DNA of 4,300 nt, taken from a virus (Duplodnaviria; Heunggongvirae; Uroviricota; Caudoviricetes). The stretch lies in IMG/VR virus record IMGVR_UViG_3300029459_000083; one strand, written 5' to 3'. Within the stretch, counting starts at the first letter, position 1; every line of letters begins with the position of its first letter. The notes beneath the pieces were generated by a model that was given only the letters and a program-made list of their open reading frames with translations, had not been told where the DNA came from and ran no database searches. The translations under genes and the position numbers were made by a program. Positions 1 to 4,300 of the stretch are shown here, piece by piece.

Positions 1-2685
1 TACCATATCCGCGGTCGTATCATCCAGGTGCCGTCAAACTATGACCCGGAAAAACGCACGTACAGTGGTATCTGGGACGGCAGTCTGAAACCGGCATACA
101 GCAACAACCCGGCCTGGTGCCTGTGGGACATGCTGACTCACCCGCGCTACGGCATGGGAAAACGTCTGGGGGCGGCGGATGTGGACAAGTGGGCGCTGTA
201 TGCCATCGGGCAGTACTGCGATCAGACGGTCCCGGATGGTTTCGGGGGGACCGAGCCGCGGATGACCTTTAATGCGTACCTGGCACAACAGCGTAAGGCG
301 TGGGACGTTCTCAGTGATTTCTGCTCGGCGATGCGCTGTATGCCGGTATGGAACGGCCAGACGCTGACGTTCGTTCAGGACCGCCCGTCGGATGTGGTGT
401 GGCCGTACACCAACAGCGATGTGGTGGTGGATGATAACGGCGTGGGATTCCGCTACAGCTTCAGCGCCCTGAAGGACCGCCACACGGCGGTGGAGGTGAA
501 TTACACCGACCCGCAGAACGGCTGGCAGACCTCCACGGAACTGGTGGAAGACCCGGAAGCCATACTGCGCTACGGACGCAACCTGCTGAAGATGGATGCG
601 TTCGGCTGTACCAGCCGCGGTCAGGCCCACCGTGCCGGACTGTGGGTGATAAAGACCGGACTGCTGGAAACGCAGACGGTGGATTTCACGCTCGGGTCAC
701 AGGGGCTGCGGCACACGCCCGGAGACATCATTGAAATCTGTGATAACGACTACGCCGGAACCCTGACCGGCGGACGTATCCTGTCCATCGACGCCGCCAG
801 CCGTACACTGACGCTGGACCGTGAGGTGACACTGCCGGAGACCGGTACCGCCACGGTGAACCTGATTAACGGCAGCGGTAAGCCGGTGAGTGTGGACATC
901 ACCGCACACCCCGCGCCGGACCGGATACAGGTCAGTACCCTGCCTGATGGCGTGGCGACATACGGTGTGTGGGGACTCTCCCTGCCGTCACTGCGTCGTC
1001 GCCTGTTCCGTTGTGTCGCCATCCGGGAAAACACGGATGGCACCTTTGCCATCACGGCAGTGCAGCACGTACCGGAAAAAGAAGCCATCGTGGATAACGG
1101 GGCCAGCTTTGAGCCGCAGTCAGGCACCCTGAACAGCGTTATTCCTCCGGCAGTGCAGCACCTCACGGTGGAGGTGAGTGCCACAGACGGCCAGTATCTG
1201 GCGCAGGCGAAATGGGACACGCCGCGGGTGGTGAAAGGTGTGCGCTTCAGTCTGCGTCTGACCAGCGGAAGGGGGGATGACAGCCGCCTGGTGACCACCG
1301 CCATCACCGCAGACACGGCGCACCGTTTCAGTGGTCTGCCGCCCGGGGAATACACCCTGACGGTCAGGGCGATTAACAGCTACGGCCAGCAGGGCGAACC
1401 TGCCACCACCACGTTCCGGATTGACGCCCCGGCAGCGCCTGCCACCATTGAACTGATACCGGGGTATTTTCAGATAACGGCGGTCCCGAAACTGGCTGTA
1501 TATGACCCGACGGTACAGTTTGAATTCTGGTTTTCGGAACAGCAGATTGCGGATATCAGGCAGGTTGAAACCTCCGCCCGCTATCTTGGCACGGCGCTGT
1601 ACTGGATAGCTGCCAGTATCAATATCAAACCGGGCCATGATTATTACTTTTATATCCGCAGTGTCAACCTGGTGGGCAAATCGGCATTTGTGGAGGCCGT
1701 CGGCCGGGCCAGCGATGATGCCGAAGGCTACCTGAATTTTTACAAAGGGCTGATTAATAAAACACATCTCGGTAAAGAGCTGCTGGAAAACGCTGAACTG
1801 ACGGAAGATAACGCCAGCAGACTGGATGAGTTTTCGAAAGAGTGGAAAGACGCTAACGATAAATGGAATGCCATGTGGGGCGTCAGAATTGAGCAGACCG
1901 AAGACGGTAAGCATTATGTCGCTGGGCTTGGCCTCAGCATGGAGGACACGGAGGACGGTAAACTGAGCCAGTTTCTGGTTGCCGCTAACCGTATCGCGTT
2001 TATTGACCCGGCAAACGGGAATGAAACGCCGATGTTTGTGGCGCAGGGCAATCAGATATTCATGAACGACGTGTTCCTGAAATACCTGACGGCTCCCACC
2101 ATTACCAGCGGCGGTAATCCTCCGGCATTTTCCCTGACACCGGACGGGCGGCTGACGGCGAAAAATGCTGATATCAGCGGTAACGTGAATGCGAATTCCG
2201 GGACGCTCAACAACGTCACGATTAACGAGAACTGTCGGGTTCTGGGAAAATTGTCCGCGAACCAGATTGAAGGCGATCTCGTTAAAACAGTGGGCAAAGC
2301 TTTCCCCCGGGACTCCCGTGCACCGGAGCGGTGGCCATCAGGGACCATTACCGTCATGGTTTATGACGATCAGCCGTTTGACCGGCAGATTGTTATTCCG
2401 GCGGTGGCATTCAGTGGCGCTAAGCATGAGAGAGAGCATACTGATATTTACTCCTCATGCCGTCTGATAGTGCGGAAAAACGGTGCTGAAATTTATAACC
2501 GTACCGCGCTGGATAATACGCTGATTTACAGTGGCGTTATTGATATGCCTGCCGGTCACGGTCACATGACGCTGGAGTTTTCGGTGTCAGCATGGCTGAT
2601 GAATAACTGGTATCCCACAGCAAGTATCAGCGATTTGCTGGTTGTGGTGATGAAGAAAGCCACCGCAGGCATCAGTATCAGCTGA
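1..2685 (+). CDS. J: Tail-tip host-specificity protein J (central tail fibre), 5'-partial; C-terminal ~894 codons present
   Basis: Open frame runs from base 1 (codons [27 protein letters not shown]...) to TGA at 2683-2685. The ORF track's start at 28 is an internal GTG; there is no stop in 1-27, so the gene begins upstream of the window. The translation closely resembles what I recall of lambda gpJ ([69 protein letters not shown]). Two fibronectin-III-like segments are visible (~1144-1440 and ~1441-1720). GC content falls from about 60% in the 5' part to about 42-50% in the 3' part. Confidence 0.93.
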
Positions 2686-2752: not shown

Positions 2753-2824
2753 ATGCGTAAAGTTTGTGCAGCCATTTTGTCCGCAGCCATCTGTCTGTCC
2801 GTATCCGGTGCGCCTGCATGGGCG
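2753..2824 (+). other. Sec signal peptide of Lom (24 aa, predicted cleavage after AWA)
   Basis: MRK, then a hydrophobic core AAILSAAICLSV, then SGAPAWA / SEHQ: an n-h-c layout with an A-x-A signal-peptidase-I motif. Confidence 0.7.
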
Positions 2825-3356
2825 TCTGAACATCAGTCCACACTGAGCGCGGGGTATCTTCATGCCCGTACGAACGCCCCCGGCAGCGATAATCTGAACG
2901 GGATTAACGTGAAATACCGNNNNNNNNNNNNNNNNNNNNNNNNNNNNNNNNNNNNNNNNNNNNNNNNNNNNNNNNNNTGAGGATGAGCAAAAAACGCGCT
3001 ACAGAGATACCCGCTGGCATGAAGATTCCGTGCGTAACCGCTGGTTCAGCGTGATGGCGGGGCCGTCTGTACGCGTGAATGAATGGTTCAGCGCGTATGC
3101 GATGGCGGGTGTGGCTTACAGCCGTGTGTCGACTTTCTCCGGTGATTATCTTCGCGTAACTGACAACAAGGGGAAAACGCACGACGTGCTGACCGGAAGT
3201 GATGACGCTCGCCACAGCAACACGTCTCTGGCGTGGGGGGCTGGCGTGCAGTTTAACCCGGCCGAATCCGTGGCCGTTGATGTCGCTTATGAAGGCTCCG
3301 GCAGTGGCGACTGGCGCACTGACGGTTTCATTGTGGGTGTCGGTTATAAATTCTGA
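2753..3356 (+). CDS. lom: Outer-membrane protein Lom (Ail/Lom/PagC/OmpX-family beta-barrel), interrupted by an assembly gap
   Basis: ATG at 2753 with an upstream RBS. The N-terminal 55 codons (MRKVCAAILSAAICLSVSGAPAWASEHQSTLSAGYLHARTNAPGSDNLNGINVKY) and, after the N-run, 125 codons (EDEQKTRYRDTRWHEDSVRNRWFSVMAGPSVRVNEWFSAYAMAGVAYSRV...GDWRTDGFIVGVGYKF, stop 3354-3356) both closely match lambda Lom as I recall it. The ORF track splits the gene into 2753-2980 and 3030-3356 only because of the gap; the pre-gap frame (mod 3 = 2) and post-gap frame (mod 3 = 0) differ, so the gap length is nominal. The C-terminal ...GYKF ends in an aromatic residue, as is typical of beta-barrel outer-membrane proteins. 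Confidence 0.88.
2920..2977. other. Assembly/scaffold gap (58 N) inside lom
   Basis: A run of 58 'n' characters. The flanking lom reading frames are out of register, and the TGA at 2978-2980 in the upstream frame is an artefact. Confidence 0.99.
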
Positions 3357-3383
3357 TTAGCCAGGTAACACAGAGTTATGACA

Positions 3384-3409
3384 GCCCGCCGGTTCTGGTG
3401 GGCTTTTTT
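3384..3409 (+). terminator. Rho-independent terminator downstream of lom
   Basis: GCCCGCC (3384-3390), loop GGTTCT, GGTGGGC (3397-3403) gives a 7-bp stem with one G-U pair, followed by TTTTTT (3404-3409). It starts 28 nt after the lom stop codon. Confidence 0.5.
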
Positions 3410-3420: not shown

Positions 3421-4300
3421 ATGTCAGTACAGATTTCAGGTGTGCTGAAGGATGGTACAGGAAAACCGGTACCGAACTGCACCATAGAGCTGAAAGCCGT
3501 GAGAACCAGCGAGACGGTGATAGTCACCACGGTGGCGGAGTGTCAGCCAGGGGAAACAGGCAGTTACACCATGCAGGTTGAGCCGGGGCGTTATCGTGTG
3601 ACCCTGTGCGTGGAAGGCCGTCAGCCGGCATGCGCTGGCGAGATTGATGTCATGGCAGACGACGAGCCGGGCACACTGAATGCGTTTCTGCTGCGTGAGC
3701 AGGACAGCACTTATTACCCTGAATCGCTGAAAAAACTGGAAGACGCGGCGGATGCGGCTGTCAGCAGGGCAGAGGAAGCGGCGAGGAAAGCGGAAACGGC
3801 GGTTGGGCCACAGGGACAGAAAGGCGACACCGGGGCAACGGGTCCGCAGGGACAGAAGGGAGACAAGGGTGATACAGGCCCACAGGGGCCAAAGGGTGAT
3901 AAAGGAGACAAGGGCGATAAGGGGGATACCGGCCCGAAAGGTGAGCAGGGCGACCCGGGAGGTCCACAGGGACCGAAGGGCGACAAGGGGGATACAGGAG
4001 CTGCAGGCCCGGCAGGACCGCAGGGACCGAAAGGGGATACAGGAGCCACAGGTCCGGCAGGACCGCAGGGACCGAAAGGGGATACAGGAGCCGCAGGCCC
4101 GGCAGGACCGCAGGGACCGAAGGGAGATACGGGAGCTGCAGGCCCGGCAGGACCACAGGGTCCAAAAGGGGATACGGGAGACACAGGCCCGGCAGGACCA
4201 CAGGGACCGTCAGGAAGTCCTGACAGCGGACTGTTTGGTGTCGGTTCTTTTGTCCTTGCGGCGTATTATGCGACGAGTTATTCGGGGGATATGGCACCGG
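3421..4300 (+). CDS. stf: Side tail fibre protein (Stf-like) with a collagen-like Gly-X-Y domain, 3'-partial
   Basis: ATG at 3421 opens a frame that stays open to the window end; it is absent from the ORF track because no stop is reached. The N-terminus [26 protein letters not shown]... resembles the lambda Stf (orf-401) N-terminus [26 protein letters not shown]... as I recall it. The 64-nt spacing after lom matches the lambda layout. An Ala/charge-rich linker ([23 protein letters not shown]) precedes about 45 uninterrupted G-X-Y triplets ([80 protein letters not shown]...), after which a non-collagenous segment begins ([28 protein letters not shown]). Confidence 0.88.
3805..4215 (+). repeat. 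Collagen-like triplet repeat tract (about 45 G-X-Y triplets, 9-bp GGN-CCN-NNN periodicity)
   Basis: Reading in the stf frame gives Gly at every third residue from codon 3805 to codon 4213, with Pro, Gln, Lys, Asp and Thr in the X and Y positions. Confidence 0.9.
3991..4209 (+). repeat. 45-bp direct tandem repeat, about 4.9 copies, in-frame (encodes [15 protein letters not shown])
   Basis: Units GATACAGGAGCTGCAGGCCCGGCAGGACCGCAGGGACCGAAAGGG begin at 3991, 4036, 4081, 4126 and 4171 (the last partial), each differing from its neighbours by only a few substitutions. Confidence 0.85.

Follow-up and report, generated by a model that had tools for sequence, protein, structure and literature searches.

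A lambdoid tail fibre gene J with a receptor-binding module of the 1A2/VT1-Sakai class, probably directed at OmpC

Gene content of the window

The analysed stretch of viral DNA (hereafter the window) is 4,300 nt long and carries, all on the plus strand, genes in the order J, lom and stf, as in the lambdoid tail modules of lambda, 434 and VT1-Sakai. J encodes a lambda-J-type central tail fibre (tip attachment) protein and occupies nt 1–2685. Its 5′ end runs off the window, the stop codon lies at 2683–2685, and the 894 C-terminal codons are read without interruption. Pfam domains were recognised at window residues 96–260 (PF13550), 374–477 (PF24421), 479–581 (PF24489), 609–735 (PF09327) and 764–894 (PF12421), the first four preceding PF12421 in the same order as in lambda J. 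The match to PF12421 (Ig_GpJ_C) at the extreme C-terminus reached 128.8 bits (cut-off 26.2; E = 1.9e-37).

Between J and lom lies a terminator-like hairpin with a T-run behind it (nt 2704–2728); phages 21 and 434 have an annotated terminator at the equivalent place. The lom gene (nt 2753–3356) codes for an Ail/Lom outer-membrane beta-barrel, with PF06316 matching on both of its halves. It is broken by a masked run of Ns at 2920–2977 (58 nt; 54 nt in relatives), and its DNA is 94–97% identical to the lom of 434 and VT1-Sakai. Further downstream, a stf-like side tail fibre gene (nt 3421–4300) starts with an N-terminal PF08400 domain, continues with collagen-like G-X-Y repeats (PF01391) and is cut short by the 3′ end of the window. 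A 45-nt tandem array lies within it at 3988–4209. Among complete E. coli genomes, the one closest to the window over its whole length matches it at 97.7%.

The C-terminal domain of J

The last ~150 residues of J are the gpJ receptor-binding domain (nt 2230–2682), as recognised by alignment, Pfam, structural modelling and Foldseek. A phmmer search against the PDB aligned this domain over its full length with A8 gpJ (9wca, 1.2e-76) and lambda gpJ (8xcj, 7e-56; 8iyk, 4e-55). The AF2 monomer model, with pLDDT values of 80–97 over most residues, has the fold of an Ig-like beta-sandwich. Structure prediction of this region had been proposed in an earlier note made from the DNA sequence, and the resulting model indeed matches the solved lambda and A8 domains: Foldseek returned 9wca, 8xck, 9wcb and 8xcj at a probability of 1.0 (E from 1e-18 to 3e-20; TM(query) 0.67–0.69). 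Entry 9wcb is A8 gpJ with the OmpC of EDL933, while 8xcj is lambda gpJ with LamB. A literature search for the paper on 9wca and 9wcb gave only the 2024 lambda paper.

Compared by BLASTP with lambda J (NC_001416), the J of the window is 72% identical over 894 aa, which correspond to lambda residues 236–1131. This average conceals large differences between segments: identity is 80% for lambda residues 236–500, 67% for 501–750, 90% for 751–980 and 44% for 981–1132. In tblastn the last 150 aa gave 42%. A maximum-likelihood change-point in the DNA comparison with lambda was placed at nt 2210. Identity falls there from 89% to 57%, a drop far greater than chance would give in both DNA (Fisher p = 8e-36) and protein (p = 5e-22). 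The earlier note had described a C-terminus of about 150 residues that differs from lambda J, keeps its length and layout and follows an upstream part that tracks lambda closely. The divergence was borne out (42–44% identity versus 90% for the 230 aa directly upstream), far from the more than 90% identity that would have spoken for an ordinary lambda-type tip. The preserved length and layout were borne out as well, with indels of only 1–3 aa in the C-terminal region, and all three peptide strings quoted in that note were found in frame 1. The close resemblance of the upstream part holds for the adjoining ~230 aa. Farther upstream it does not, as identity to lambda falls to 67–80% there and the sequence is instead 92–99% identical to J of O157-type prophages.

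Divergence from lambda is not confined to the loops of the domain, since strands and loops are affected alike (41% and 44% identity, respectively). Drift of the loops alone was thus rejected in favour of replacement of the whole module.

Mosaic structure of J

Sliding DNA identity revealed that the J of the window is a three-part mosaic. The first segment (nt 1–1500, plus strand) is an O157-type prophage J backbone, 92–99% identical in DNA to J of Stx1_131719, Stx1_14040, WGPS6 and PhiR5_1 and only 57–90% to lambda. According to informative sites, the switch to the second segment falls at nt ~1485–1540. This second segment (nt 1501–2150, plus strand), delimited by sliding identity and informative sites, is lambda/434-like with 88–96% DNA identity, and 47–73% identical to PhiR5_1, A8-like J and Stx1_14040. 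It corresponds to lambda J residues ~751–950, which form the alpha-helical shaft and the central straight fibre (Ge & Wang 2024).

The third part begins within a linker of 40 residues (nt 2110–2229, plus strand) that is conserved in all J alleles aligned. Informative sites place the switch from lambda/434-like to VT1-Sakai/PhiR5_1-like sequence at nt ~2145–2170, inside this linker. The recombination junction lies ~60 nt ahead of 2220, where the earlier note let the divergent region start. Homologous recombination inside the linker, around a stretch of 13 residues and the motif NNVTINE, would have joined the module to a lambda/434-like shaft. That J residues 960–1132, the "specificity region", are exchanged as a module was described in 2018 (PMC6646904), and the point at which Brödel et al. 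fused natural C-termini to lambda J (lambda residue 964) falls in the same conserved linker (PMC11338833).

Allele class of the receptor-binding module

The module is 97–98% identical to the J of VT1-Sakai, of the Stx2a_WGPS2 and PPompW prophages and of PhiR5_1. Over the domain, identity is 97–98% to VT1-Sakai and PhiR5_1, 69% to phage 21, 63% to A8 and phi330, 44% to lambda and 43% to 434. Four residues differ between the window and VT1-Sakai (window residue first): M786/R, R811/K, M867/V and S892/T.

The same module was found in gpJ 1A2, a chimera in which a natural C-terminus takes the place of lambda J from residue 964 onwards (Brödel et al. 2024, PMC11338833); about its origin, these authors state that it comes from a private strain collection and nothing further. 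The 1A2 sequence is available in their Supplementary Information as OCR-damaged DNA text with ~10 frameshifts, which we aligned with a custom frameshift-tolerant procedure. Seven of its 191 positions are unreadable and six of the readable ones are corrupted. In this text, 178 of the 184 readable codons agree with VT1-Sakai and 175 (95.1%) with the window, so that, read through the OCR damage, the module appears at least 95% identical to the characterised 1A2. Identity of 1A2 to the others is far lower (phage 21, 72%; A8, 66%; lambda, 51%). Three of the four differences from VT1-Sakai can also be read in the 1A2 text, where position 786 is OCR-damaged.

By its sequence, the module belongs to the 1A2/VT1-Sakai allele class and is not a new allele. 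It fits neither the lambda-type LamB-binding allele (44% identity over the domain, 30% in the loops) nor that of A8 and phi330 (63% and 37%, L1 and L2 containing 9 gap columns). 1A2, VT1-Sakai, Stx2a_WGPS2, PPompW and PhiR5_1 share with it the allele, the loop indel pattern and the linker as junction. Apart from the substitutions, the shaft differs: that of PhiR5_1 (lambda residues 751–950) is of another type, with ~60% identity, whereas that of the window is lambda/434-like, and VT1-Sakai, whose J is frameshifted, has a shaft only partly in common with the window.

The module is widespread. It was present in 3,350 of 5,426 complete E. coli genomes (62%), with a median of 2 and a maximum of 10 copies per carrier genome. 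Modules that match that of the window at 99% identity or more were present in 23 records of complete E. coli genomes.

Predicted receptor-facing loops

We located four bottom loops from strand alternation in the monomer model combined with alignment, not from coordinates of a complex; all four are predictions on the plus strand. L1 (nt 2299–2343, 15 residues) has approximately the length of its lambda counterpart and shares WPSG with it, while that of phage 21 and A8 is 4–5 aa shorter. It corresponds to lambda residue ~1012, a known indel site (Maddamsetti 2018, PMC6646904). L2 (nt 2416–2448, 11 residues) has the length of lambda's; phage 21, A8 and 434 carry an insertion of 5–6 aa here that it lacks. 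It holds R811, where VT1-Sakai, PhiR5_1 and 1A2 have K. L3 (ALDNTL) lies at nt 2506–2523. L4 (nt 2596–2631, 12 residues) resembles that of phage 21 and A8 and, as in these two, 1 aa of lambda is missing near residue 1107, a position that aligns just ahead of the predicted start of the loop. L4 holds M867, a V in VT1-Sakai, PhiR5_1 and 1A2. Over L1–L4, 42 of 44 residues are identical to VT1-Sakai and PhiR5_1 without any gap column, the differing positions being R811/K and M867/V.

Loop identity by itself does not reveal the receptor. Two LamB users, phage 21 and lambda, share 24% of loop residues and two OmpC users share 23%, while phage 21 (LamB) and A8 (OmpC) have 83% in common. We therefore rejected sequence distance as a guide to the receptor. 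The step taken in the earlier note, from a divergent C-terminus to another receptor, is likewise invalid alone: the phage 21 domain lies just as far from that of lambda (49% identity), and its native receptor is LamB.

OmpC as the probable receptor

Evidence on the receptor comes from published experiments on 1A2. In MG1655 ΔlamB ΔompC supplied with ompC in trans, 1A2 delivered DNA through 20 of the 23 natural variants of OmpC, the EDL933 type included, and delivery through the accepted variants amounted to 76–99% at the highest MOI (PMC11338833). With G1 (the K-12 OmpC), G2 and G40 it was ~2% or below, and on wild-type MG1655, which is lamB+ and has the K-12 OmpC, 1A2 failed (5% at MOI 50; PMC11338833). 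Given the ~97% identity of the two modules, OmpC is the most likely receptor for the module described here as well. We thus consider it very probable that modules of this allele class use OmpC and not LamB, the exact variant of the window being assigned to the class by that identity. The suggestion in the earlier note of a receptor other than LamB is in this way supported by experiments on a near-identical module. In the literature searched, we found no receptor named for VT1-Sakai, WGPS2, PPompW, JLK-2012 or the PhiR phages. The PhiR phages come from Brenes & Laub 2025.

A8 and phi330, whose domains share 99% identity, have the same fold as the window, the same trimeric porin-binding architecture and the receptor class that we propose for the window. 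OmpC use was demonstrated independently for A8 by Brödel et al. (2024, PMC11338833) and for phi330 by a Keio knockout plus complementation. The genome of phi330 is WGPS6-like, and a tip of the WGPS6/434 type was considered for it and rejected because the alignment places its domain with A8 at 99%. A8 and phi330 differ from the window in an L1 that is 4 aa shorter and an L2 that is 5 aa longer, and A8 accepts the K-12 OmpC while 1A2 does not. The J of 434 and Stx2a_WGPS6 also belongs to the family, shares the fold, uses OmpC and has a shaft segment 89% identical to that of the window, but its loops are only 13% identical, L1, L2 and L3 being longer and L4 shorter. Judging from these sequences, it seems to have arrived at OmpC independently. 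Lambda J (8xcj, 8xck) has the family, domain order and fold in common with the window but binds LamB.

Nucleotides ~2150–2685 encode the receptor-binding part of J, which, like its relatives, would act as a trimer and form the central tail fibre of the lambdoid prophage. Its three Ig-like beta-sandwich domains would each insert the distal loops L1–L4 into a trimeric porin at its extracellular mouth. This porin would be OmpC and not LamB; the majority of natural E. coli variants of OmpC would serve, among them that of O157, while that of K-12 would not. Trimer formation and porin binding are predicted here by analogy. By analogy with the solved lambda–LamB and A8–OmpC complexes, binding would spread the bottoms of the three domains. 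According to the mechanism in the literature, such spreading may twist the fibre and flip the helical shaft, and the tail tip would then open for DNA ejection.

Alternative explanations

A different possibility is that this J belongs to a defective prophage and no longer serves as a receptor-binding protein, its sequence reflecting only past recombination. Many prophages with this allele are degraded, the VT1-Sakai J is split by a mutation, and carrier genomes hold several copies of the module; the masked run in lom, 58 nt against 54 nt in relatives, may point the same way. However, the 894 codons of J are intact, lom, stf and both terminator-like hairpins flank it in canonical order, and PhiR5_1, PhiR55_1 and PhiR47_1, which carry the module, were deposited as complete phage genomes with E. 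coli C and ECOR13 as hosts. Loss of function is therefore unlikely, though it deserves some weight.

The four substitutions relative to VT1-Sakai raise another question. The exact variant of the window is taken, from its sequence, to behave like the 1A2 class. An OmpC-directed module might nevertheless accept other OmpC variants or have gained a second porin such as OmpF. R811 and M867 fall in predicted contact loops L2 and L4, and 1A2 and A8 do accept different OmpC variants. Small changes can matter, since a single J mutation adds a receptor in phage 21. More generally, phage 21 can gain OmpC and OmpF, and lambda OmpF, through one or a few changes in J; lambda residue 1107, critical for OmpF use, aligns just before L4. 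Against this, the exchanges are conservative (K/R, V/M), any role of these positions in specificity is putative, and the 23 genome records with nearly the same module suggest ordinary standing variation. A shifted range of this kind seems to us quite doubtful, and there is a slim chance that the substitutions open the way to, for example, the K-12-type OmpC or to a second porin. If they did, this would be a natural case of receptor expansion by few mutations, so far known mainly from laboratory evolution of lambda and phage 21.

Finally, it is highly improbable that the module binds LamB, its divergence being another solution to the same receptor or fitted to another LamB allele spectrum. In favour of LamB, phage 21, its nearest classical relative, with a lambda-like body and a swapped C-terminal module too, uses LamB natively (OmpC only once mutated), the lengths of L1 and L2 are close to those in lambda, and low identity to lambda does not speak against LamB, which phage 21 and lambda both use. 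Against it, the ~97%-identical 1A2 failed on lamB+ MG1655 and worked in ΔlamB hosts given a suitable OmpC, and identity to phage 21, 73% outside the loops, is just 41% within them, with other L1 and L2 lengths.

Biological significance

The components of the preferred reading, an OmpC-directed module of the 1A2 class, have already been published: exchange of the J specificity region in 2018, the sequence of the allele in 2000 and OmpC use in 2024. Our addition, based on sequence comparison, is only a small one: it connects 1A2 explicitly with the VT1-Sakai-type module. Which strains a lambdoid prophage can enter is set by the receptor-binding tip of its J, and this includes the Stx1- and Stx2a-converting phages that carry this module. 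That such a common module is of the OmpC-directed 1A2 type would explain how these phages spread in wild E. coli and yet plate poorly on K-12. It would also make the receptor predictable from sequence in genome annotation.

Organization of J and the tail-end genes

Frame 1 of the window reads without interruption from nt 1 up to the stop codon at 2683–2685. The resulting 894 codons align end to end with residues 236–1131 of lambda J (NC_001416), and the same series of Pfam domains is found as in lambda J: Phage-tail_3, two Ig_J, Phage_Tail_Tip and Ig_GpJ_C, the last of which ("C-terminal receptor binding domain") covers J residues 764–894. On the plus strand, J is followed by a terminator-like hairpin with a T-run (2704–2728), lom (2753–3356, by Pfam and alignment), a second such hairpin with a T-run (3383–3409), and a side-tail-fibre gene (stf) with collagen-like repeats that starts at 3421 (Pfam and repeat search). 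Phages 21 and 434 have terminators annotated at both hairpin positions. The order J–lom–stf is the canonical lambdoid tail end, as in lambda, 434 and VT1-Sakai. In VT1-Sakai, the reference prophage for the receptor module, J is broken (AP000400, 181–3653; the annotation gives two overlapping CDSs, 'truncated by a mutation'), whereas all 894 codons of the window J are intact.

The lom gene is interrupted by 58 masked N at 2920–2977, where lom of VT1-Sakai and 434 has 54 nt. Should the masked length be real, the first half of lom would be in frame 2 and the second in frame 3, a mismatch that could be a real frameshift or a masking artefact. Within 3421–4300, stf consists of a conserved N-terminal domain (PF08400) and a long series of collagen-like G-X-Y repeats, with 4.9 copies of a 45-nt unit at 3988–4209. 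Past its first ~100 nt, the gene is divergent from all ten reference phages (47–78% identity). The repeats also produce long spurious ORFs on the opposite strand.

The receptor-binding module of J appears to be replaced as a whole

The earlier note proposed that the J C-terminus (2220–2685) is unlike that of lambda, with a conserved upstream part, and the peptides it cited are present in the frame 1 translation. In pairwise alignment, identity to lambda J was 80% over lambda residues 236–500, 67% over 501–750, 90% over 751–980 and 44% over 981–1132; tblastn gave 42% for the last 150 residues, far from the >90% that the note had named as refuting it. Thus, the C-terminal divergence stands, and length and layout are retained with small indels only. 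The upstream similarity holds for ~230 residues directly before this region but not further upstream, where identity falls to 67–80%. The maximum-likelihood change-point against lambda DNA was placed at nt 2210 (89% identity before, 57% after), and the drop is highly significant for both DNA (Fisher p = 8e-36) and protein (p = 5e-22). Since the divergence is even across the domain (predicted strands 41%, loops 44% identical to lambda), the alignment speaks for an exchange of the entire module rather than for local drift.

A sliding comparison with ten reference J genes at the DNA level revealed a three-part mosaic. Nucleotides 1–1500 are 92–99% identical to J genes of O157-type prophages (A8-like Stx1_131719, Stx1_14040, WGPS6, PhiR5_1). 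The stretch of ~1500–2150 is 88–96% identical to lambda and 434, and 47–73% to PhiR5_1, the A8-like J and Stx1_14040, while ~2200–2700 matches VT1-Sakai and PhiR5_1 at 97–100%. J is therefore an O157-type backbone with a lambda/434-like shaft and a VT1-Sakai/PhiR5_1-type receptor module. From informative sites, the junctions map to nt ~1485–1540 and ~2145–2170, the second inside a linker ([13 protein letters not shown]…NNVTINE) that is kept in every allele compared. The same stretch holds the fusion point of engineered chimeras, lambda residue 964 (Brödel et al. 2024, PMC11338833). Maddamsetti et al. 2018 (PMC6646904) described a "specificity region", J residues 960–1132, which recombines separately from the remainder of J and whose indels at 1012, 1048–49, 1077–78 and 1107 define lineages; Stx2a_WGPS2, which carries the module of the window, was among the phages they compared. 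The whole-module replacement indicated here is exactly what they described.

The module is also a very common, long-sequenced allele. Its 466-nt region is 97–98.5% identical to J of VT1-Sakai, many Stx2a- and Stx1a-converting phages, PPompW prophages, JLK-2012 and PhiR5_1/PhiR55_1. At a coverage of at least 80%, it was found in 3,350 of 5,426 complete E. coli genomes (median two copies per carrier), and the junction-spanning 936 nt in 795 of the 5,426; protein clusters with the module run to thousands of members. In 23 records of complete E. coli genomes, the module is at least 99% identical to that of the window. For the whole 4.3-kb window, no match of at least 99% was found in complete E. 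coli genomes; the best (97.7%) was strain PM4-5, from cecum, and several other top matches are pig isolates.

Predicted structure of the domain

By sequence, the nearest solved chains are "A8 gpJ 713" (9wca/9wcb; E 1.2e-76), A8 being an engineered gpJ, and lambda gpJ (E 7e-56). For the last 191 residues, AlphaFold2 gave a model with a mean pLDDT of 78.7 (80–97 across most of the domain). Foldseek matched it with probability 1.0 to closed A8 gpJ, closed lambda gpJ, lambda gpJ with LamB, and the "open state of A8 gpJ 713 with OmpC G17 from E. coli EDL933". Upon receptor binding, the bottoms of the domains spread, the fibre twists and the tail tip opens (Ge & Wang 2024). Strand alternation in the model delimits four distal loops, L1–L4 (residues 767–781, 806–816, 836–841 and 866–877), which presumably form the receptor-facing side. 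L1, L2 and L3 coincide with the indel sites 1012, 1048–49 and 1077–78, and site 1107 lies directly before L4 (PMC6646904). Three proximal loops (DDQxFD, NG, MPAGxG) are conserved across all alleles compared.

Sequence distance does not predict the receptor

The window domain is 69% identical to phage 21, 65% to Stx1_14040, 63% to A8 and phi330, 47% to Fels-1, 44% to lambda, and 43% to 434 and WGPS6. Published receptors are LamB for lambda and OmpC for 434, A8 (Brödel et al. 2024, PMC11338833) and phi330 (Keio knockout and complementation); phage 21 (GenBank OL657228) natively uses LamB, and one J mutation adds OmpC. In phi330 (PV189401, 17482–20610), the receptor module is 99% identical to engineered gpJ A8, so these two independent OmpC assignments concern one allele; the phi330 paper compared it with 434 and lambda only (35–40% identity).

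Phage 21 and A8, with LamB and OmpC as native receptors, share 82% identity over the domain and 83% in the predicted contact loops. Few substitutions thus separate natural LamB from natural OmpC use in this clade, which agrees with the laboratory gain of OmpC by a single mutation. Loop identity was 24% between the two LamB users and 23% between two OmpC users. As it does not follow the receptor, we rejected distance as a predictor, and the suggestion that a divergent end may mean another receptor needed direct evidence.

The module most likely targets OmpC

Such evidence is provided by 1A2, a second natural C-terminus amplified from a private-collection strain, the DNA of which is printed in the Supplementary Information of Brödel et al. 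2024 (PMC11338833). The text is OCR-damaged and plain tblastn split it over three frames, so a frameshift-tolerant protein-to-DNA alignment was used. 1A2 matched VT1-Sakai at 178 of 184 readable codons, with all mismatches at visibly corrupted spots, and the window at 175 of 184, a comparison that excludes residue 786, unreadable in 1A2. Identity was 72% to phage 21, 66% to A8 and 51% to lambda. Together with the VT1-Sakai marker residues HEKEHT, WLVNNW and AGITIS, all present in 1A2, these sequence matches assign it to the VT1-Sakai/window allele class.

When ompC was supplied in trans to MG1655 ΔlamB ΔompC, delivery by 1A2 at the highest MOI was 76–99% via 20 of 23 natural OmpC variants, G17 (EDL933 type) among them, and ~2% or less via G1 (K-12 OmpC), G2 and G40. 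In lamB+ wild-type MG1655 at MOI 50, delivery was 5% for 1A2 versus 98% for lambda J (all Brödel et al. 2024, PMC11338833). This profile shows that the 1A2 module depends on OmpC, works without LamB and discriminates among OmpC variants.

The idea of a receptor different from that of lambda is thus supported by the published OmpC use of 1A2, and, judging by its allele class, the module of the window most likely has OmpC and not LamB as its receptor. Both the modular exchange and the receptor of the module are already known from the literature. Four conservative substitutions separate the window domain from VT1-Sakai (M786/R, R811/K, M867/V, S892/T), with residue 811 in predicted L2 and 867 in predicted L4. 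Receptor shifts by few mutations are documented in the J family (phage 21; Maddamsetti et al. 2018, PMC6646904), and the window may carry a variant with a modified OmpC-variant spectrum.
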